A stretch of DNA of 10,475 nucleotides, from contig JBGSTX010000263.1 of assembly GCA_041736305.1 (NCBI GenBank), positions 1 through 10,475 of the forward strand, written 5' to 3'. The DNA comes from Oligoflexus sp. Lineage in GTDB: Bacteria > Bdellovibrionota_B > Oligoflexia > Oligoflexales > Oligoflexaceae. Shown one piece after another: positions 192-9,114 of this stretch (positions are counted from its first letter, which is position 1; every line of letters begins with the position of its first letter). A program made the translations under genes and the position numbers. A model generated the notes under the pieces. That model worked only from the letters and a program-made list of their open reading frames with translations. It was not told the origin of the DNA and did no database searches.

Positions 192-230
192 AAGGGGCCG
201 CACCACCGTCAGGTAGTGCGGCCCCTTTTA
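192..230 (+). terminator. Rho-independent terminator downstream of the OmpA-family gene
   Basis: Perfect 12-bp inverted repeat AAGGGGCCGCAC (192-203) / GTGCGGCCCCTT (216-227), extendable inward by ACC/GGT around a GTCA loop. The right arm ends in a T-run (TTTT 226-229) followed by ATCTCT. Confidence 0.8.
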
Positions 231-327: not shown

Positions 328-1722
328 CTAGCCAACTGGCATGCCCTTCGTCACTTCGCGCATAATCTCCGGATCGCGATAGAAGATGTTCATCGTATCG
401 AAGGGAATAACGCGTCCGTCAGGGTTTACGATGTGCACACAGGTTTTCTTTATAGGGCGGAGGTCGAAGCTATATTTGTCATAGAACTGCATAATAATAA
501 TTCGAAACACATTCTCGTAGCTGAGCGGAAGGTTTTCAACAGCTGGAAGACAGCATAGTAGAGACTGCAAGGATGCCGAACTTTGACCAGGACTTGTGCC
601 CGTACTAAAAAGTTCGAAGAATCGCCGCTTCAATTCGGGATCCCGCTCTATAGTAATTGTATTTCCTGAATCATTTAAAAGATTTCGTGGCTCAACCCAG
701 TCCGATAAAGGGCGAACGCCTCCTTGCCATTTGAGGGCGTAGGCCATCGCTATAGCCTCGGGATGGCAGGGAACGGGGATGATATCCTGCGGTTTGAAGA
801 GGCTGTGCTGCTCGAGAATTGCCCTGCGGACTTCGCTTAGGGTCATGCGATCTAGAGCAGGGTTGAAGTTTTCAGTTCTTCCAGCAACCTGTGTGGGCTG
901 GAAAGTGATCCCGCGCACGCACGGCTGTTGGAGCGCAAATTCGATAATACTGCCAATTTCGTCGGAATTTACGCCTTTTTGTAGGGTCACCACCAGAGTA
1001 GTCGAGATTCCGAACTCGTTGAGGTGCTCTAAACTCTTTCGCCTTACCTCTCTCAGATCTTGGCCGCGCAGTTTAACCAGCGATTCCTCCCGCAAAGAGT
1101 CGAACTGCAGATAGACTTCGAGGCCAGTTTTATACTCGGCCAGGCGTTTCACAAAGCTCAGCTCTTGCGCGATCCGTAAGCCATTGGTGTTGATCATGAG
1201 ATGCTTGACAGGACGTTCACGGACCATCCTGATAACTTCGAAGAACTGTGGATGAAGAGTTGGTTCACCGCCGCTCAACTGAATGACATCAGCTGTACCT
1301 TCGTTAGCTATAACGGTATCGAGCATGAATTCGATTTCGCTTAATGACCTATGGCGGCCGACCCCAGGACCTGAGACAGCATAGCAAGTCGGACAGCTCA
1401 GTTGGCAGCGATCAGTTAATTCTATGACGCTGACGCACGAGTGCTGTTCATGGTCAGGGCATAATCCGCAGTCATAAGGACAGCCGAGGCGGGTGCTGGT
1501 GTTATTCCTTAGGGGTTTCTGACTCGGCTTGCAGTAGTCCCTCGCGCTCTTGTAATATTCTATGTCATCAGCCACCAGCACTTCTTCGACCCCATGCTGC
1601 GGGCAGCGCTTAATCATATAGACCGCTTCATCCTGAAGAACTATTTTTGCTTCGACCTTGCGCAAACACTGAGAACATACGCTGATCGTAACGTCGTAAA
1701 AGACGGATTCCTTGGACAACAT
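328..1722 (-). CDS. Radical SAM protein, Tes/GDGT-MAS (MJ0619)-like family, 464 aa
   Basis: Contains an N-terminal C16xxC19...C40xxH43 rubredoxin-like site, C81xxxC85GLC88xxH91, the radical SAM motif C106xxxC110xxC113, SGGEPTLHP and NTNG. C-terminal motifs are PVPC(319)HP, CC(390-391) and KTC(428)VH...DGRVIPFD. SD-like GGGGGA lies 7 nt before ATG 1722. Confidence 0.88.
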   Translation of the reverse strand: MLSKESVFYDVTISVCSQCLRKVEAKIVLQDEAVYMIKRCPQHGVEEVLVADDIEYYKSARDYCKPSQKPLRNNTSTRLGCPYDCGLCPDHEQHSCVSVIELTDRCQLSCPTCYAVSGPGVGRHRSLSEIEFMLDTVIANEGTADVIQLSGGEPTLHPQFFEVIRMVRERPVKHLMINTNGLRIAQELSFVKRLAEYKTGLEVYLQFDSLREESLVKLRGQDLREVRRKSLEHLNEFGISTTLVVTLQKGVNSDEIGSIIEFALQQPCVRGITFQPTQVAGRTENFNPALDRMTLSEVRRAILEQHSLFKPQDIIPVPCHPEAIAMAYALKWQGGVRPLSDWVEPRNLLNDSGNTITIERDPELKRRFFELFSTGTSPGQSSASLQSLLCCLPAVENLPLSYENVFRIIIMQFYDKYSFDLRPIKKTCVHIVNPDGRVIPFDTMNIFYRDPEIMREVTKGMPVG

Positions 1723-2410
1723 GGGCTAGTCCCCCGATTAAGCAAAGTACCTGAGTTGTGCTAAATGGTCCCCATACCTTAGGCAATGGCTTAAGAAAGT
1801 CAATCGCGAAGCGGAAGGTGAGATACGCAGCCAAAAAAGATCGGAAAAGATGCCCCGGATAAGAAAACTGTCTCGTGTTAGCCGTCCGCCACTTCCAAAG
1901 AAGCAATCCCAAAAAAGCGATTTCATATACTTGAGTGGGATGTCGACCCACTCCATCGCCGAAGTTTACAGCCCATGGAAGATGAGTCGGAATGCCAAAG
2001 GCGGGGTCTGATAATCCTGCAGCCAAGCAGCCTAGTCGACCAAGCAAAATGCCGAGTATAAGGGGCCGGGTGAAAAGGTCGCCCGATGATTTCCTGATCC
2101 CCATCCCAAGCTTTCCCAGCTCGATGAGGAGCCAGCCACCCAGAATAGCTCCGATGACGGTTCTCTCGGTGACCGCTAACTCAGGTATGAAGTAACGTTC
2201 AATAGTTCCAGGTAAACGAGAGCCTATAATCGCACCTAGTGCGGCACAAACCGTTAATACATGGCGGTGGCTGCTCTCCAGTGTATCTTGTTCACGCTTT
2301 TTTTGTGCTCGGTAAAATGCACAGGCGATACTTATAGCTAGGGTCTCGACAGCGGCGTGCAACCAAGTCCAATGCGATGTTGCTTTGTAGAACTCCCCTA
2401 AATCAATCAT
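1628..2410 (-). CDS. Prolipoprotein diacylglyceryl transferase (Lgt) family paralog, polytopic membrane protein
   Basis: Lgt-like motifs GRLGC, GxPTxLPWAVxF, RHPTQVYE and YxxFRFxIDFLK, with several hydrophobic helices. Start reassigned from 2461 to ATG 2410, which has an AGGA SD and overlaps the upstream TGA as ATGATTGA. Confidence 0.85.
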   Translation of the reverse strand: MIDLGEFYKATSHWTWLHAAVETLAISIACAFYRAQKKREQDTLESSHRHVLTVCAALGAIIGSRLPGTIERYFIPELAVTERTVIGAILGGWLLIELGKLGMGIRKSSGDLFTRPLILGILLGRLGCLAAGLSDPAFGIPTHLPWAVNFGDGVGRHPTQVYEIAFLGLLLWKWRTANTRQFSYPGHLFRSFLAAYLTFRFAIDFLKPLPKVWGPFSTTQVLCLIGGLAHVVQGIRLLRRYDQRMFSVFAQGRSKNSSSG

Positions 2411-2906
2411 CTGCGTCCTGTGCGACAGGTAAAATATTGAAATATTGCAAACACGCTTCATAAGCTAGATCTCGGACAAATCTCGTTGAATCATTCTTAT
2501 CTCTAAGTTCAGTTTCATCTCCGTTAAGTTGAATGCCACTATCCACCCGGACCAGCTCCCGTGTAACGCCCGTTCCCTCGCAGCCTATGCAGCTAAGGAT
2601 AAAACTGCCTTCTTTCGACTCGTTCTCCTCATATCCTACCTGGCAACCCTCATGAGTACTAAATACGTAACCGCTAACTGCGGTCGAATCTTTCTCATAG
2701 ACCCTGCACTTGTCTGTCCTAGTAGCGCAATACTCGGTAGTTCCATTAGAGAATAACCAGGTATTAGAATCCCAGAGCCCTGAGCCGAGATACACGTCAT
2801 TATTTATTGCCACCGGGAATTCCCCACAATTTACATTCCAAGCGCTCAAACTGAGAAGCGTGAAAGTCGCTAAAGCGGCAAAAGTCCCTTGCCTATTGAC
2901 ATGCAT
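2403..2906 (-). CDS. Hypothetical exported Cys-rich protein (167 aa), possible atypical lipoprotein
   Basis: Start reassigned to ATG 2906 (SD GAGAGGG). N-terminus MHVNRQGTFAALATFTLLSLSAWNVNC has a basic residue, a hydrophobic core and Cys27. The acidic mature part has six more Cys. The stop overlaps the start of the Lgt-like gene. Confidence 0.7.
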   Translation of the reverse strand: MHVNRQGTFAALATFTLLSLSAWNVNCGEFPVAINNDVYLGSGLWDSNTWLFSNGTTEYCATRTDKCRVYEKDSTAVSGYVFSTHEGCQVGYEENESKEGSFILSCIGCEGTGVTRELVRVDSGIQLNGDETELRDKNDSTRFVRDLAYEACLQYFNILPVAQDADD

Positions 2907-2985
2907 GCTTTGCCCTCTCTTCAACTTGTGATTTGAACATTTTGTGATAATATATGGAAATCGTAAGATAATTCTAGGAACAAAT
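2907..2985. promoter_or_regulatory. AT-rich divergent promoter region; candidate + strand sigma70 promoter
   Basis: 79-bp gap between divergent ATGs, about 30% GC (18/60 in 2941-3000). TTGTGA(2942-2947)-16 nt-TAAGAT(2964-2969), plus an extended -10-like TGTGATAAT at 2943-2951. TTGTGAT occurs at 2926 and 2942. Confidence 0.4.
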
Positions 2986-3579
2986 ATGTACTCGAAGCTC
3001 AGATTCCTCTTCAGCGTTCTGATTTTGATGTTCTTGTACAAACCTAGAGATTTATTTGCTCTCAACTATGGCGTAGACCCTGCTAAACCAATTTCGATAG
3101 GTGCACATCTAGGCCTTCTGAGCCAGGGGGTCCATCTTGGCTATGCTTTATGGGAAGGTGTTGGAATTGAGTTGGGACAGCACCAATACTCGACGTATAG
3201 CTCCCGCAGTACAAATCGAGGGGAACGAAACTATTACATCGTCTTGCAATATTACTTAGGCAAAATTTTCCATTACAAGGCTGGGTTACAAGCAAAAACC
3301 ATAGATGTCGACTGTAATAATTATTGGAGTAGTTGCAGGCAGACATTTAACGCTCTTACATACGGGCTAAGACTTGCTATGGGCATACACTTTCGTTTTA
3401 GCTTTGGGCTGGGAATAGGGGGCGAAATCATTTCTTTCTATCAGCCACTTACAGCGAGCGTTACCGAAGAAAAAAGAGGAATCGGACCGGCAACAGGAAG
3501 TCAAAGAAATAGAGTCGAAGCCCAAATTATGCAGGGAAATTTTGGACTTTTGCCCTTCTACATAGACTACGCATTTTAA
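2986..3579 (+). CDS. Putative outer-membrane beta-barrel protein (197 aa)
   Basis: ATG 2986 has an AGGA SD. N-terminal hydrophobic signal-like segment, then amphipathic Gly/aromatic strands (GVHLGYAL, GIELGQ, YGLRLAMGIHF, GLGIGGEI). C-terminal FYIDYAF ends in Phe, like a BAM beta-signal. Confidence 0.65.
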   Translation: MYSKLRFLFSVLILMFLYKPRDLFALNYGVDPAKPISIGAHLGLLSQGVHLGYALWEGVGIELGQHQYSTYSSRSTNRGERNYYIVLQYYLGKIFHYKAGLQAKTIDVDCNNYWSSCRQTFNALTYGLRLAMGIHFRFSFGLGIGGEIISFYQPLTASVTEEKRGIGPATGSQRNRVEAQIMQGNFGLLPFYIDYAF

Positions 3580-3676: not shown

Positions 3677-3757
3677 CCGCTCGAAATCTACTGCCAGTGA
3701 GAAGCTCGTAATCAACGGCTTCAACTCATGGTCACCAAATTAAGGAAGAAAATCAGC

Positions 3758-4558
3758 ATGCTTAGGAACATACTCATGTCATGGACGCTTGCGGGGTTTA
3801 GTCTGGGGCTTGCAGCGAGTCAAGCACAGGCGTCGGCCTGCTCGCAGCTGGGTCACTGGTACTGGCCGCCTGAACCCGATGCCATTAGCTTCGGGGCCTC
3901 GATCGGCAATCACGAAGGAGTGAAGGTCTCGTATTACACCGATCTAAAAGACGTCTCAAATGTCATAGAGGTCGTTCGCAGCGGTTTTTCATCCACTAAG
4001 ACCTATCAGTATCGCTCCAAGTCTTCGTCTATCAAAATCAGCACAGTTGGATCTTTCGAAGAATCTATCGAGCTGAGCGCAAATGATTCTCGTTACTTGG
4101 AAACACTGAGTAGAATGCGCGATTTGGTCGGCTACGTTGGTGCTCCGGAAGCCTACCTACGCCCAGACGGAGGTCCCGCAAGCTTGAATGTCGGGGCGAT
4201 TTATATAGTAAAATTTTTAGATCAGCTGATAGCTGCTCAGCTTCAGGGTCCGACCCCAGCCAACTGTGTTCTCTATAAGGACGCCGCAGATCTGACAAAA
4301 TCTAATGCTTGTGAGCTTACAGGTGGGGCTCTTTTCACCCTTGGACCATGGCGGTCTCAAGTCAAAGCCGTGTGGGTTCGCTCTTCTCATCGCTTGACTC
4401 TCGTCAAAGACGATCGCTTCGACAAGGCTGCCGGTTTCGCAAGCTATTATGGGTACGATGCGCAGGGCCAGGAAGTGGACGGCGGACGCTTATTCTTCAT
4501 CTCAGAAGCAGCCGGGCTCGAGGCTACAACAGCTCTTTGTGCCACAACCCAACCTTAA
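3758..4558 (+). CDS. Hypothetical secreted protein with a putative C-terminal beta/gamma-crystallin-like domain
   Basis: Likely start ATG 3758 (AAGGA upstream; 3728 is the alternative). Sec signal MLRNILMSWTLAGFSLGLAASQAQA has an AxA site. A Pro linker (GPTPA) precedes CVLYKD...W-RSQVKAVWV...LTLVKDDRF. Confidence 0.7.
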   Translation: MLRNILMSWTLAGFSLGLAASQAQASACSQLGHWYWPPEPDAISFGASIGNHEGVKVSYYTDLKDVSNVIEVVRSGFSSTKTYQYRSKSSSIKISTVGSFEESIELSANDSRYLETLSRMRDLVGYVGAPEAYLRPDGGPASLNVGAIYIVKFLDQLIAAQLQGPTPANCVLYKDAADLTKSNACELTGGALFTLGPWRSQVKAVWVRSSHRLTLVKDDRFDKAAGFASYYGYDAQGQEVDGGRLFFISEAAGLEATTALCATTQP

Positions 4559-5070
4559 TCACCCAAAGACGACGGGCGGAGACTGAGTCTCTGCCCCGCT
4601 TTATCACCCTGACTGTTGTGGTCGATCAAGCCCAGTAGAGTATTAAGCAGCTGCAGATTGAACACGCTGTGAGCCGGCAGATCTGCTAGCGACTGTTCTT
4701 CAAAGTTGAGAGGGCAGGCATCGCGATATTTGCGACTATCTTCTTTGATCTCCAGAGGAAAACCGTGGGTCCGGCACACGACCGGTCTAGCTTCATAGAT
4801 AATGCAGGCGCCTTGAGCATCGAGAAAACTGCAGCGTTGGCCGCCGAAGGGTTTGCTGACTTCATTCTCTGCGGCAGCCTTAGCTTTAGCTGGATTTTCA
4901 GCTAGAAAGCTCTGAATATGCTCGGCTTCGACCGGAAATATCGTAAGGTCCGGCTTACAGCAGCTGTGACAGCCGAGACCACATCGTAGAGAGGAGCCGT
5001 GCAAGGCACTGAGCTCAGCTCCTTTCTCGTCGATCTTTTTTAGAAGCTCGCGGTATTTTGGATCGCTCAC
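4555..5070 (-). CDS. YkgJ-family cysteine-cluster (CxxxCxxCC) protein
   Basis: Motifs CGLGCHSCC and CSFLD-x3-ACIIYEARPVVCRTHG...DACPLN. The GTG start overlaps the upstream TGA (GTGA). The stop overlaps the convergent gene's stop (TTAA 4555-4558). Confidence 0.88.
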   Translation of the reverse strand: MSDPKYRELLKKIDEKGAELSALHGSSLRCGLGCHSCCKPDLTIFPVEAEHIQSFLAENPAKAKAAAENEVSKPFGGQRCSFLDAQGACIIYEARPVVCRTHGFPLEIKEDSRKYRDACPLNFEEQSLADLPAHSVFNLQLLNTLLGLIDHNSQGDKAGQRLSLRPSSLGD

Positions 5071-6485
5071 TCGTTCCCCTTCGGCTTCCGTCGCATCACC
5101 GCTACAAACATCGTGTCAGCGTCCTCCATAGGACAACCGAGAAGTTGCTGATCCACCAATTCAAATTCACTATGGCCAGCGAGAAAGGCGGTCACACGTT
5201 CTTCATTTTCAACTCGCAGCCAGCTGCAGGTAGCATAAACGAGGCTACCCCCTTCGCGCACTGCAGCCGATACCGTTTTGAGAATCTTATCTTGAATCGC
5301 TGTGAGTTCCTGAAGGGAGGTCTCGGAAACTCTCAATTTCGCATCTGGATTCCGCCGCCAAGTCCCGGCTCCTGAGCAGGGTGCATCGATCAGAACGGCA
5401 TCAAAACCCTTGCGCTTCTCAAGCTCTTTGCCGAGTGCCGGTAGTCCTTCGCCATCCCAAGTCCAGTAGCGAATATTGGCAAGCTGGGCACGACCGGCTC
5501 TCTCCCGGAGATCGGTTAGCTTATAGGACCGCACATCTGAAGCGTACACGGCTCCACTGTTTTCCAAACGACTGGCTAATTGCACGCTTTTCCCGCCGCC
5601 GCCGGCGCAGCAGTCCCAGACCCGCGAACCGCGCTCAAGGGGAACAGCCTCGCCTATGCGCTGCGAAGCGCGGTCTTGTATTTCGATGAAACCTTTTTGA
5701 TAGGACTGAAGTTTATAGACCCCCAACTCACCCTCTACGGCCAAAGCTAGGCCGTCGGACTTCGCCGTGAAACCTTCAGCTGCCAGTTCGGCCATTACTT
5801 CTTCGCGCATGCCTTCGCTCTTAAGACGCAACCACAGCGGAGGCCGTAGCTTTTGCTTTTCAAGAAATGACTGCGCTACCTCCGGCAGCCATTCGCTACG
5901 CTCGTGGAGATGAGCGAAGAAAAAGGGCGGTATACCTTCCCAAATTAAAAGGAGAGAAAGAGGAATATCCTTTTCACTTTTCTTCTGGATCAGCTCTTCC
6001 CAGACTTTGAGGAGTCCTGCCTCATGTATCGAAGGATGGGAAACTGCAGAGTGATCCAAGCGCAAACCAAGCCAGAGGAAGAGGCGATCGCCGGGCATAG
6101 CTGTGATCAGAGGCCACCAGCTGCTCGGCTCGAATCTATGATCGTGCAACTGTAGCCAGCGCGCATCCTGCCAGCTCTTCTCGACTCCAATGCGCCACTG
6201 CTTTTCAGCTGCTGCGGCCCAGACTCCGAGGCGAAGTACCGCAAAGAGAGCGTCGCTGTACCACTTCCGATCTTTCTGCCCGAAGCGTTTTTCACTGCGG
6301 AAACGCTGGGCCAGCCAGCGATCGAGCTGAGGCAGGCTAGGCAGCGAACGCAGATCATCCCAAAGCTTGAGGAGATGGGGGGTGCGCGGCGAGTGGAGGA
6401 ACTCGCGCAGTCGGCCCGGCAGCGGACGAGTATCTATAGCTGTTTTCCACGAGGGCCCAAAGCTTGCTTCATTTGCGATGTCCAT
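5067..6485 (-). CDS. RsmB/NOP2/Sun-family RNA m5C methyltransferase (472 aa)
   Basis: Motifs IQDRAS, DCCAGGGGKS (SAM binding), DAPCSGAGTWRRNPD (motif IV Cys) and YATCS...ENE (motif VI Cys). Start reassigned to ATG 6485 (GGAG SD), which removes the overlap with folB. Confidence 0.92.
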   Translation of the reverse strand: MDIANEASFGPSWKTAIDTRPLPGRLREFLHSPRTPHLLKLWDDLRSLPSLPQLDRWLAQRFRSEKRFGQKDRKWYSDALFAVLRLGVWAAAAEKQWRIGVEKSWQDARWLQLHDHRFEPSSWWPLITAMPGDRLFLWLGLRLDHSAVSHPSIHEAGLLKVWEELIQKKSEKDIPLSLLLIWEGIPPFFFAHLHERSEWLPEVAQSFLEKQKLRPPLWLRLKSEGMREEVMAELAAEGFTAKSDGLALAVEGELGVYKLQSYQKGFIEIQDRASQRIGEAVPLERGSRVWDCCAGGGGKSVQLASRLENSGAVYASDVRSYKLTDLRERAGRAQLANIRYWTWDGEGLPALGKELEKRKGFDAVLIDAPCSGAGTWRRNPDAKLRVSETSLQELTAIQDKILKTVSAAVREGGSLVYATCSWLRVENEERVTAFLAGHSEFELVDQQLLGCPMEDADTMFVAVMRRKPKGNE

Positions 6486-6513
6486 TTTATCTCCGGCCCG
6501 AAAGTTGTTCGAT

Positions 6514-7254
6514 TTAGTTGTAGAGGCTGGGGCTGCTGGGCCGCCGTGCCGATCGCGGTGGCTGACGAGTTTTGCGATGGGCAACCAGCAAAAGACTGCG
6601 GGGCGTTTCGCCATTGTTGGCGAATCTACCCGTCGTGAGATCGACTTGACCTAAATGCTCCCCAGCCTGCAGCTCGCGTCCGTTGCAAAACAGACCGCTG
6701 CTAGCAGGCAGAGCCGCTTCAATCTGCCAATCTCCAAAGTCAAGATTCAGTTCCGATTGCGGAGCGCAAACCAGCGAGAAAATAGCGGCTTCCGGTGCGG
6801 CGAAGAGCAGTCCATCGATGAGAGCTGCCGTCGGCTTAAGAAAGACCTCTTCTCGCTTTCTAAAAATGCGAATGGACGGCATGGCCACACCAGCAAGAGC
6901 TTCAGGCTTGATAATCTCCAGCTCGAGTGCCTCGATGCGAGCATGAGGTTTATCGATAGGTGCTGGCGCTAAGACATAACTTGCCAGAGCTTCGGCAGCA
7001 GATTCCAGCAGTCGAAAGCGGGCATGCGTGAGAATAAAACTTAGTTCACGTGCGAGAGCCGCATAGTCGACCGATTTTTGCAGGCGTCCGCTGAGAGCGG
7101 CTGGACGCGTATCGAGATGAAGGACGAGGTTGAGCCGCAGCAGCTGAGGGCTGATCTCTTCTTCTGGATGAATACCGATCATGCAACGCACCTGCAGCTC
7201 CTGCAGGCGAATTTCATCCAAAATGCGCTCACCATCGGGAAATCTTGTCGGCAT
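6514..7254 (-). CDS. folB: Dihydroneopterin aldolase with a C-terminal extension of about 110 aa
   Basis: FolB motifs DEIRLQEL...IGIHPEE...Q, SVDYA, FRLLESAAE and IIKP. AAGGAG SD upstream of 7254. Confidence 0.85.
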   Translation of the reverse strand: MPTRFPDGERILDEIRLQELQVRCMIGIHPEEEISPQLLRLNLVLHLDTRPAALSGRLQKSVDYAALARELSFILTHARFRLLESAAEALASYVLAPAPIDKPHARIEALELEIIKPEALAGVAMPSIRIFRKREEVFLKPTAALIDGLLFAAPEAAIFSLVCAPQSELNLDFGDWQIEAALPASSGLFCNGRELQAGEHLGQVDLTTGRFANNGETPRSLLLVAHRKTRQPPRSARRPSSPSLYN

Positions 7255-7324
7255 TGCTGGTCTCCTTGCGCTCCGGTTTTAATATGAGAAGGAGCGAATG
7301 GCAATGAATCCTTCGACCTGCTGT

Positions 7325-7353
7325 TTCGCTTTTCATGGCGAGATGCCTATGGT
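7325..7353 (+). promoter_or_regulatory. Weak candidate sigma70 promoter for cmoAB, in the folB/cmoA divergent gap
   Basis: TTCGCT (7325-7330)-17 nt-TATGGT (7348-7353); only a partial consensus match. Confidence 0.25.
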
Positions 7354-7396
7354 AGCGTCGCCGGCCTGTCTTAAGCTTCCCTTTGGAGGTGCCGCA

Positions 7397-8161
7397 ATGG
7401 AAAAAGCTTCCGACCACGGCCTTAAACTATTAGGTCATAATGACGCTATCTTTGCCGGTCAGCAGTATCCGAAGCCCTTCAGCTTCAATCACGAGGTGGC
7501 TGCCGTCTTTGATGATATGGTGCAGCGCTCTATACCCCTCTACTGTGACGTGACCCGCTATGCGGCTGATCTCAGCCGACATTTCTATCAGGAAGGCACA
7601 GCCATTGTCGACATTGGCTGCTCAACGGGCACCACAACCCACCATATGGGTTGGCAGCTTGACGCTCCGGCCCGGTTTATCGGCATCGATAAGTCAGCTG
7701 CCATGATCGCAAGGGCCCGTGAGAAGCTGGCAGACTTTCCCCAGCGCCACAGTCTAGATCTGGTCTGCGATGACATTATGGCGGTAGAGCTGCCGCCGTC
7801 CTCGGTCGTCATTATCAACTATACGCTCCAGTTCCTCCCCGTAGCCGATAGACGCCTGCTTTTGCAGCGAATCTACCAGGCCTTGCTACCTAACGGAGTG
7901 CTTTTGATCAGCGAGAAAGTCCGTTCCTCGACTCCGGTGCTCCAGGAAATGACCACGCTTATCTACGAGCGCTTCAAGGAAGCTCAAGGCTACAGCCGCA
8001 CAGAAATCGAAAGAAAAAAAGAAGCGCTCGATCAGGTCTTGATTCCCTTTAGCGAAGACGAGCACAGAAAGCATCTCAAGGCCGTGGGATTCGAGAGCGT
8101 CGAGTCGTTGATCAAGTGGAACAACTTTCTCACTCTGATAGCTTTGAAGGTTTACCCGTGA
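7397..8161 (+). CDS. cmoA: Carboxy-S-adenosyl-L-methionine synthase
   Basis: Motifs FSFNHEVAAVFDDMVQRSIPLY, DIGCSTG, NYTLQFL, SEK and GYSxxEI. Start reassigned to ATG 7397 (GGAGGT SD). Adjacent to cmoB. Confidence 0.93.
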   Translation: MEKASDHGLKLLGHNDAIFAGQQYPKPFSFNHEVAAVFDDMVQRSIPLYCDVTRYAADLSRHFYQEGTAIVDIGCSTGTTTHHMGWQLDAPARFIGIDKSAAMIARAREKLADFPQRHSLDLVCDDIMAVELPPSSVVIINYTLQFLPVADRRLLLQRIYQALLPNGVLLISEKVRSSTPVLQEMTTLIYERFKEAQGYSRTEIERKKEALDQVLIPFSEDEHRKHLKAVGFESVESLIKWNNFLTLIALKVYP

Positions 8162-9114
8162 GCGATAATTGGTTGGATCTACTAGGGCCCAAAGCGCGAC
8201 GCGAAGAGCTCGCGAGCCTGACTGCGGAGCGTGAAGGAGCCCTTGCCGAAGCGCGTTGGGCCCCGCTGCGTGAACTCCTGGCGAGACTATCCGATATCAA
8301 AGCGAGTTCTGTCGATATCGACCGGGCTTCCATCTCAATTGGGCAACCTATTGATCTCAATGAAGAGCAAAGCCAGCGGCTAAGAGCTGCTCTAGAAGAG
8401 CTGCGGCCTTGGAAAAAAGGCCCTTTTTCCCTATTTGGGATCGATATAGATGCCGAGTGGCGCTCAGACCTCAAGTGGAATCGTTTAGCGGACGCGGTCG
8501 GATCGCTAGAAGGTCAGCTGGTCGCCGACATCGGTTGCCACAACGGCTACTTCATGTATCGCATGCTCGCCCATGGAGCCCGAGCTGTGGTGGGCTTTGA
8601 GCCTTACGCCCGCCTTCGCTTTGTCTTCGACCTCTTGCAAGGCTTTCATCGCTTCGAGCCGCTGCACTTTTCACTCTTGGGTGTTGAGCACTTCGATCTC
8701 TGCGAAGAGAGTTTCGACACTATATTCTGTCTCGGCATCCTCTATCATCACACCGATCCCGTCGGGCTACTCAGGAAACTGCGGCGGGCCTTGCGCCCGG
8801 GAGCTCGGCTCTTTGTTGACTGTCAGGGCATACCAGGGACCGAATCGCTGGCCTTAGTTCCCGAAGGACGCTACGCGGGTGCGAGCGGAATCTGGTTTTT
8901 GCCTACTCTCAGCGCGCTCCGGAGCTGGGCTAAGCGCTCGGGATTTTCCCGGATCGAAACTATTTTTTCTGAGCCTTTGAGCGTCGTTGAGCAAAGACCA
9001 ACGGCGTGGGCTGCGGTCGATAGTCTCGAACACTTCCTCGATCCTACTGACAGCAGTCGGACCATTGAGGGCTATCCTGCCCCCTGGCGCCACTATGTTC
9101 TTTTAAAAGCCTAA
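8158..9114 (+). CDS. cmoB: tRNA U34 carboxymethyltransferase
   Basis: Motifs PWKKGPF, IDAEWRSDLKWNR, DIGCHNGY, FCLGILYH, P-x-GRYA and TIEGYPAP. GTG 8158 overlaps the cmoA TGA. Confidence 0.95.
   Translation: MSDNWLDLLGPKARREELASLTAEREGALAEARWAPLRELLARLSDIKASSVDIDRASISIGQPIDLNEEQSQRLRAALEELRPWKKGPFSLFGIDIDAEWRSDLKWNRLADAVGSLEGQLVADIGCHNGYFMYRMLAHGARAVVGFEPYARLRFVFDLLQGFHRFEPLHFSLLGVEHFDLCEESFDTIFCLGILYHHTDPVGLLRKLRRALRPGARLFVDCQGIPGTESLALVPEGRYAGASGIWFLPTLSALRSWAKRSGFSRIETIFSEPLSVVEQRPTAWAAVDSLEHFLDPTDSSRTIEGYPAPWRHYVLLKA

Follow-up and report, generated by a model that had tools for sequence, protein, structure and literature searches.

We analysed a 10,475-nucleotide (nt) window, the whole stretch from position 1 to position 10,475 of contig JBGSTX010000263.1 from Oligoflexus sp., and describe here a three-gene cassette at 328-2906. 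The cassette encodes a small cysteine-bearing protein, a paralog of the lipoprotein diacylglyceryl transferase Lgt, and an enzyme of the radical S-adenosylmethionine (SAM) type resembling the archaeal tetraether lipid synthase GDGT-MAS/Tes. Gene neighbourhoods indicate that the Lgt paralog and the Tes-like radical SAM enzyme form a conserved pair, often translationally coupled, in several phyla. A Cys-bearing third component, recognised from small open reading frames (ORFs) around the pair, is the main addition to the general form of the original prediction, which had seen in these genes a candidate lipid or lipoprotein tailoring system. We propose, with a confidence just short of an even chance, that the cassette is an accessory module that modifies one Cys of a dedicated partner protein with a lipid tailored by the radical SAM enzyme. 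The elements of the cassette are as follows:

328-1722, minus strand: radical SAM gene, encoding 464 amino acids (aa)
1628-2410, minus strand: Lgt paralog gene, encoding 260 aa with the ATG at 2410 as start (2461 in the longest ORF)
2403-2906, minus strand: first gene, for the small Cys protein, encoding 167 aa with the ATG at 2906 as start (a TTG at 3065 in the longest ORF)
192-227, minus strand: intrinsic-terminator-like hairpin with 16 pairs, 11 of them G-C, and a T-run, about 100 nt past the radical SAM stop

The ORF listing of the window contains three minus-strand ORFs that overlap one another at 328-2906. The first two share 8 nt at 2403-2410, where ATGATTGA is common to the stop of the small-protein gene and the start of the Lgt paralog gene, and the second and third share 95 nt at 1628-1722, so that the Lgt paralog stop lies inside the radical SAM gene. 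Purine-rich Shine-Dalgarno-like motifs (GAGGG, AGGA and GGGGGA) can be read from the sequence 5-8 nt ahead of each of the three starts, and the start codons chosen agree with the N-termini of relatives. A contig from a second study, belonging to a strain about 98% identical, spans 480-3080 with 51 substitutions and no gaps. Third codon positions account for 24 of the 27 substitutions listed in the radical SAM gene and six of the eight listed in the non-overlapping part of the Lgt paralog gene, counts that leave out 14 of the 51. Because this contig is gap-free and its substitutions fall mostly at third positions, the cassette genes are real, intact and under purifying selection. A frameshift or assembly artefact was considered as the source of the 95-nt overlap and ruled out, since the second-strain contig has no gap and similar overlaps, of 71-98 nt, occur at six loci. 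The arrangement given by the original prediction, three overlapping minus-strand genes (8 nt and 95 nt) each with its own Shine-Dalgarno motif, was borne out by the ORFs, the sequence and the second-strain contig. Within the 95-nt overlap, both second-strain substitutions (1645 and 1717) occupy third positions of the radical SAM frame and first positions of the Lgt frame; with two substitutions, this is a hint of constraint there on the radical SAM frame rather than on the Lgt frame. The hairpin and T-run at 227-192 appear to close the operon, and a crude scan of the minus strand upstream of 2906 gave no sigma-70-like promoter.

To assess the conservation of the pair across genomes, we kept 80 loci from a metagenome scan that returned 594 related stretches, making 86 loci in all with the genome loci. 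The Lgt paralog was present at 71 of the 86 loci holding a radical SAM homolog, directly upstream in 50, upstream after 362-1676 nt in 18, on the opposite strand in two and downstream in one. Eight of the 15 loci lacking the paralog have less than 800 nt of upstream sequence. At all six genome loci, which come from Fibrobacteria, a cyanobacterial metagenome-assembled genome (MAG), three Alphaproteobacteria and one family relative, the paralog lies directly upstream of the radical SAM homolog. The Lgt stop overlaps the radical SAM start at 38 of the 69 same-strand loci, by 71-98 nt in six of these. One protein, P0242 (825 aa, from a Tepidisphaerales MAG), is a fusion of the Lgt paralog with the radical SAM enzyme and, as a single case, is weak evidence. 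Across 131 genomes of the phylum, a close radical SAM homolog was found in five and the paralog in six, and all five genomes with the radical SAM gene also have the paralog; only two of 41 close relatives, this genome included, carry the radical SAM gene. The claim that the two enzymes are encoded as a coupled pair in genomes is thus supported by the locus counts, by co-occurrence and by one fusion. Clustering of the 823 ORFs of these loci revealed no recurrent enzyme neighbour other than the pair.

The paralog family can be multi-copy and does not always lie beside a radical SAM gene, with three paralog matches in genome G064 and two in G069. Contig C345 of G064 (L104:808-2199, minus strand) carries a 463-aa ORF with an Lgt-paralog-like N-terminus and a long C-terminal extension. 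A Tes-like gene in genome G041, 33% identical, has no paralog within 1.5 kb. In Alphaproteobacteria, a cytochrome P450 gene directly follows a cassette of Lgt paralog, radical SAM enzyme and small Cys protein (L010:5273-6481 and L011:6657-7865).

The radical SAM enzyme matches Pfam Radical_SAM (81.6 bits) and Zn_ribbon_HMPTM (61.6 bits), an N-terminal zinc ribbon named after MJ0619. Its only close solved structure is GDGT-MAS, which is MJ0619 (PDB 7tol, E 2e-63; also 7tom). The two share their domain order, and the metal-site motifs of GDGT-MAS recur with the same spacing in the window enzyme (PMC9433317). These comprise a rubredoxin-like site (Cys16-X2-Cys19-X20-Cys40-X2-His43, or CX2CX20CX2H), an N-terminal cluster site (Cys81-X3-Cys85-X2-Cys88 with His91/His94, to which the window enzyme adds Cys96) and the SAM-cluster motif (Cys106-X3-Cys110-X2-Cys113). 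Across 25 family sequences, the rubredoxin-like site, Cys81/85/88, His91/94 and the SAM-cluster motif are invariant, as are Cys96 and, in the C-terminal part, Cys319, Cys390, Cys391 and Cys428. The C-terminal stretch 404-450 aligns to 7tol 452-498 and sets Met411 opposite the labile Met439; Met411 lies outside the list of columns conserved at 90% or more. The region preceding this stretch is about 34 residues shorter than in 7tol and has other invariant Cys. On these alignments the enzyme belongs to the GDGT-MAS/Tes-like superfamily, although it differs from GDGT-MAS/Tes in scoring below the Tes equivalog cut-off, in its shorter C-terminal domain, in its own invariant Cys (96, 319, 390 and 391), in its bacterial host and in its Lgt-paralog partner, which is not known for Tes.

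At least 8000 homologs of the radical SAM enzyme were found at E <= 1e-10. Identity is 59-65% for the best 120, which represent several phyla, the enzyme being about 60% identical between phyla, and the source names of the homologs are mostly "radical SAM protein" or an old pterin methyltransferase name. Of the NCBIfam models, TrsS, built for a radical SAM (seleno)protein, scored highest with 322 bits where 490 are required, followed by Tes with 277.5 where 450 are required. The TrsS match (NF045646) runs over the whole length, covering positions 3-432 of the 441 in the profile, whereas the Tes match covers only 2-319 of 486. In a quick tree of 37 rows, the window clade (26 rows, fusion protein included) formed one side of a branch with a Shimodaira-Hasegawa-like approximate likelihood ratio test (SH-aLRT) value of 99, apart from the TrsS-named clade (SH-aLRT 100) and from intein-bearing archaeal proteins; the copies from Bdellovibrionota_B grouped as one subclade. 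The phylogeny proposed as a check against Tes relatives gave the enzyme a clade of its own, and its scores are below both the Tes and the TrsS cut-offs. Linkage to Lgt was checked directly for only six of the 26 rows of this clade, and the 80 metagenome loci fall in the same class, at 54-61% identity. The TrsS proteins seen here differ further in being fused to other domains and in having no Lgt link: P0244-P0249 and P0252 (835-874 aa) carry an HD domain (PF01966) and a MobA-like nucleotidyl-transferase domain (PF12804). This fusion context offers a lead to TrsS function.

The Lgt paralog scores 74.3 bits against Pfam LGT PF01790 (gathering score 24.9) and lies far below the NCBIfam lgt cut-offs (TIGR00544, 25.4 versus 118.9; NF000778, 30.2 versus 334). 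We utilized AlphaFold2 to model the protein, and the model, with a predicted local distance difference test (pLDDT) value of 89, shows seven helices. Its only PDB fold match in Foldseek was E. coli Lgt (5azb; E 9.5e-5, probability 1.00, template modelling (TM) score 0.55); a PDB sequence search returned nothing at E <= 0.01, so that 5azb came from the fold search alone. The genome holds three LGT-family genes, namely a housekeeping Lgt (230 bits), another paralog (113) and the window gene, the weakest (73), and it also encodes LspA. A complex prediction for the radical SAM enzyme and the Lgt paralog scored 0.00 and is uninformative either way.

In E. coli Lgt, R143 and R239 form a pocket that activates the glycerol C3-O(-phosphate) bond of phosphatidylglycerol, in an active site facing the periplasm, with Y26 and M100 as the binding residues for the donor's sn-2 ester (PMC4728403). 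A single network of buried hydrogen bonds includes both Y30 and N146, H103 is part of an HGGL motif that may bind the acceptor peptide, and mutants at Y26, H103 and R143 are inactive (PMC4728403). The window paralog keeps Arg125 and Arg200, the counterparts of R143 and R239, together with Gly124 and Gly127, and has His18, Glu22, Ile86 and Cys128 in place of Tyr26, Tyr30, His103 and Asn146. The same pattern runs through 120 paralogs (E. coli numbering): R143, R239, G142, G145 and G154 are kept in all 120, Y235 in 119 and E202 in 116, and E243 is D or E. The replacements are N146 to C (120/120), Y26 to H (117/120), Y30 to E (116/120), H103 to V or I (115/120) and M100 to K (115/120), the window paralog having R at the last position. 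Because the Arg pair is kept while positions Y26, H103, M100 and N146 are altered, the paralog has retained the catalytic core while its donor- and acceptor-contact residues were re-tooled, with a Cys gained in the cavity and a His and a Glu nearby. Family identity is 32-48%. The paralog further differs from Lgt in its shorter periplasmic head and in being a third copy beside the housekeeping enzyme, linked with a radical SAM gene and with acceptor motifs of a non-canonical kind. The second Lgt paralog of the genome (contig C273 of G000, L005:1495-2277, plus strand; 113 bits) has a Cys at the Asn146 position, with Trp26 and Tyr103 and no His/Glu pair. It adjoins a zinc-type alcohol dehydrogenase gene, and the 3.7 kb seen around it contain no radical SAM neighbour.

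Small Cys-bearing proteins accompany the pair across phyla. A strongly hydrophobic ORF of 58-131 aa directly follows the radical SAM gene, often with a 4-nt overlap, at 49 of the 81 loci that have at least 350 nt downstream of that gene. A looser cut-off gave 55 downstream ORFs, 50 of which have a Cys within the last 16 residues; from Cys use in the rest of these proteins, a share of about 16% would be expected. The Cys sits in the motif L-L-[IL]-G-x-[GSA]-[AIT]-C, and in a control a hydrophobic ORF with such a Cys was found at 91 of 1720 random positions (5%) in the same loci. We examined 22 loci for other arrangements. The downstream ORF was absent at 20 of them, and L039 and L043 have too little readable downstream sequence. 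Eight of the 22 have a small two-helix membrane ORF upstream of the radical SAM gene, mostly between the enzyme genes, with a Cys at the end of helix 1; in L048, L049 and L051 a small membrane ORF with its Cys at a helix end lies about 1.7 kb downstream. In the downstream ORFs of Alphaproteobacteria, ...PSGLCTG follows helix 1.

The typical partner in most other phyla is thus a tiny membrane protein of two or three helices encoded downstream of the radical SAM gene. These proteins differ greatly in sequence and have little in common but the Cys motif. Searches of Pfam and NCBIfam assigned no family to the small proteins or to the genes between the two enzymes, save TPR and WG repeats in single cases. 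Topology was assigned by the positive-inside rule, as read from the sequences. Because the Cys-bearing helix always runs outward from a basic cytoplasmic segment, the partner Cys is predicted to lie at the periplasmic face, at the outer end of an in-to-out helix, just as the lipobox Cys is placed in the signal peptide of a lipoprotein (PMC4728403). In the genome of the window, a search for this common small membrane partner gave two marginal hydrophobic matches only, and no small ORF follows the radical SAM gene in the window.

The candidate partner in the window is the product of the first gene. This 167-aa protein has a basic N-terminus and a hydrophobic stretch at 8-23, followed by Asn-Val-Asn-Cys27-Gly. 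The downstream part is a predicted all-beta domain with conserved Cys60, Cys67, Cys88 and Cys152. Its AlphaFold2 model reached a pLDDT of 69, and a fold search with this moderate-confidence model gave no match at E <= 0.001. The protein has no family in Pfam or NCBIfam, a protein-atlas search returned a best score of 0.79, below the meaningful level, and no second copy was found in the same genome. Relatives adjoin cassette genes in the four other cassette carriers of the phylum: G015 (upstream, in the same order), G063, G064 and G069 (two loci). Two further relatives came from a library of 1.84 billion representatives. The Cys right after the N-terminal helix is present in all eight family members, six of which are encoded beside cassette genes, and its context in the relatives is x-I-N-C-G (four), N-S-D-C-G (two) or A-S-A-C-D (one). 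The window's N-V-N-C does not match the canonical lipobox, [LVI][ASTVI][GAS]C (as quoted in PMC4728403). We regard the protein as exported or anchored and as a candidate acceptor.

The original prediction had called this protein a putative lipoprotein and a possible acceptor. The signal-type helix and the Cys27 after it, kept in all eight members, agree with that view, whereas the canonical lipobox is missing and the protein is no canonical lipoprotein. Similarly, the first gene does supply a Cys-bearing partner in this lineage, but most other phyla use a different, tiny protein downstream of the radical SAM gene. The proposed survey for an upstream Cys-bearing exported protein near the pair gave the same division, with the first-gene family in this phylum and mostly a downstream small ORF elsewhere. 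In the library, protein P0257 (799 aa) consists of many near-identical repeats, each with a stretch like ...SCIGCEG... of the window protein, 11 of which were matched; this may reflect an artefact of repeats or a repeat protein that is not related.

A fourth gene, divergent from the cassette, neighbours the first gene:

2944-3579, plus strand: outer-membrane beta-barrel-like protein; likely ATG at 2986; ends ...YAF

The encoded protein matches PF13505 OMP_b-brl below the cut-off (E 0.0049) and is 22-24% identical to barrel-like proteins encoded beside the cassette in G064 and G069. A barrel-like gene accompanies the first-gene family in the window, in G063, in G064 and at both G069 loci, and a partial ORF is similarly placed in G015. 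By this distribution, the beta-barrel gene is a lineage-specific fourth neighbour of the cassette.

In the mechanism we propose, a glyceryl-lipid group derived from a phospholipid would be moved by the Lgt paralog, through the Arg pair that it has kept, onto the partner Cys at the membrane's outer face; in the window this acceptor would be Cys27 of the protein encoded by the first gene. The radical SAM enzyme, in the cytoplasm, would work on an unactivated carbon of the lipid's hydrocarbon tail, possibly joining tails or making a C-S bond in the manner of GDGT-MAS. The tail could be altered while the lipid is still the donor, before its transfer, or once it has become the anchor, and the outcome would be an anchor beyond the reach of ordinary Lgt. 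In this phylum, the modified protein would probably work with the neighbouring beta-barrel protein. Because the radical SAM enzyme is highly conserved while the partner proteins are almost wholly variable, its substrate would be a lipid and not a protein; the weaker conservation of the paralog fits co-adaptation to varied acceptors. We think it unlikely that the cassette performs, more specifically, a new protein lipidation in which the paralog attaches a glyceryl-lipid to the outer-face Cys and the radical SAM enzyme covalently links tails, either among themselves or with a lipid in the opposite leaflet, so that the anchor becomes macrocyclic or spans the membrane.

Several observations weigh against the proposed Cys modification. 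Diacylglyceryl transfer by the paralog is not assured, because Tyr26 and His103, whose loss inactivates E. coli Lgt, are gone. The two enzymes could not act on the same atom simultaneously, since the radical SAM enzyme should be cytoplasmic and the Cys periplasmic. Seven loci with 839-3478 nt of upstream sequence have no paralog, and in G069 the radical SAM gene and the paralogs lie on different contigs. Under the stricter cut-off, 32 of the 81 loci have no downstream small ORF, and these ORFs were called by a simple script with no gene finder. The N-V-N-C of the window also differs from the L-L-I-G-x-G-x-C type seen elsewhere, and the mechanism of the cassette is inferred throughout.

The strongest competitor, which we consider somewhat unlikely, is a free-lipid pathway, in which the enzymes would act to remodel the bulk lipid of the membrane, for example to tail-linked, macrocyclic or membrane-spanning forms. 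The paralog would then merely bind lipid or transfer it, to water or to another lipid, and the small Cys proteins would be accessory or unrelated. The GDGT-MAS architecture of the radical SAM enzyme is in keeping with such a pathway, its identity of about 60% across phyla fits an invariant lipid substrate, and it has been suggested, but not proven, that bacterial Tes homologs make membrane-spanning lipids (PMC8941075, PMC11868695). The paralog's lack of residues essential to canonical Lgt, and the cassettes without a small ORF, point in the same direction. However, Cys-bearing helix proteins of widely differing sequence recur beside the pair, much more often than in the random control, and the paralog retains both the Arg pair and the signature region that faces the periplasm and serves in Cys attack. 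The patchy occurrence of the cassette, in five of 131 genomes of the phylum, would also be odd for a bulk-membrane trait.

Cys-dependent chemistry in the paralog itself is a quite improbable alternative. Lnt forms an acyl-enzyme on its Cys, and Cys128 of the paralog, with His18 and Glu22, could likewise be a nucleophile that forms an acyl-enzyme and S-acylates or trans-acylates a partner Cys or lipid. The invariant N146 to C change and the near-invariant Y26 to H and Y30 to E changes speak for this, given that Y30 and N146 of E. coli Lgt share a buried network and Y26 touches the donor sn-2 ester (PMC4728403). The Arg pair typical of C3-O-P cleavage is nevertheless retained, and the Cys at the Asn146 position alone is not specific, because the second Lgt paralog of the genome carries it without the His and Glu.

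We give even less weight to peptide maturation, a very improbable reading in which the radical SAM enzyme, like a sactipeptide-type maturase, makes a thioether or other cross-link on the small protein at or near its Cys, with the paralog either adding a lipid or serving only to anchor the complex. A radical SAM gene beside short, variable ORFs that conserve a single Cys does recall a precursor-maturase pair. This enzyme, however, is not of the SPASM type and aligns lengthwise with one that acts on lipid tails and has a phospholipid-binding pocket. Membrane helices are predicted for the small proteins, with their Cys facing the periplasm, and these proteins share almost only the Cys motif whereas the enzyme is about 60% identical. 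Finally, the suggestion that the Lgt gene is an ordinary spare copy in a coincidental gene order, for which one can cite the other LGT-family genes in the genome and the Pfam call of LGT, deserves next to no credence, being contradicted by the cross-phylum pairing, the family-specific residue signature, the genome co-occurrence and the fusion.

Bacterial Tes homologs exist in numbers and are described as uncharacterised (PMC8941075, PMC13159169, PMC13459092, PMC9433317, PMC11868695), their function being called unknown or guessed to be branched-tetraether synthesis (PMC8941075, PMC9433317, PMC11868695). The available parts of these five sources make no mention of an Lgt partner for them. A search of the literature for work joining Lgt with radical SAM, Tes or GDGT yielded nothing relevant and no description of the pair; supplements and subscription journals lay outside this search and may bear on novelty. 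We therefore rate the cassette as an undescribed variant built from two known enzyme families. To our knowledge, Mss is the only bacterial tail-coupling enzyme with shown activity. Like the window enzyme, it is a radical SAM enzyme in a bacterial host, and it joins fatty-acid tails in Thermotoga/Thermoanaerobacter (PMC13159169, PMC13459092). Its authors describe it as only remotely related to Tes (PMC13159169), and no Lgt partner is mentioned in the available parts of these two sources; Mss is set beside the window enzyme here by description.

These results link a large bacterial Tes-like clade to a re-tooled Lgt and a Cys protein, which gives a concrete hypothesis for both families and names the residues and the acceptor Cys to mutate. 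Lgt is regarded as a single-function, essential enzyme and a drug target. If the tail-linked anchor were real, it would be the first assigned function for the large bacterial Tes branch, and the paralog the first Lgt relative with private substrates. The findings also advise caution, in that not every bacterial Tes match in metagenomes marks the production of membrane-spanning lipids.

The remainder of the window contains the following genes:

3728-4558, plus strand: protein of 276 aa, without a family in Pfam or NCBIfam; its signal-like N-terminal helix ends ...AQASAC
4555-5070, minus strand: CxxCxxCC (PF03692) metal-binding protein, directly downstream of the methyltransferase gene at 5067-6614, with a 4-nt overlap
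5067-6614, minus strand: RsmB/F-type methyltransferase (by Pfam) with a long N-terminal extension
6514-7254, minus strand: FolB-like protein; about 100 nt of its longest ORF are shared with the beginning of the 5067-6614 methyltransferase ORF
7298-8161, plus strand: methyltransferase, preceding the Methyltransf_9/DUF1698 gene
8116-9114, plus strand: Methyltransf_9/DUF1698 protein (281 bits); the longest ORFs of this gene and of 7298-8161 overlap by 46 nt

Either the FolB-like or the RsmB/F-type gene probably starts further in than its longest ORF. The genes at 7298-8161 and 8116-9114 resemble a CmoA/CmoB tRNA-modification pair.

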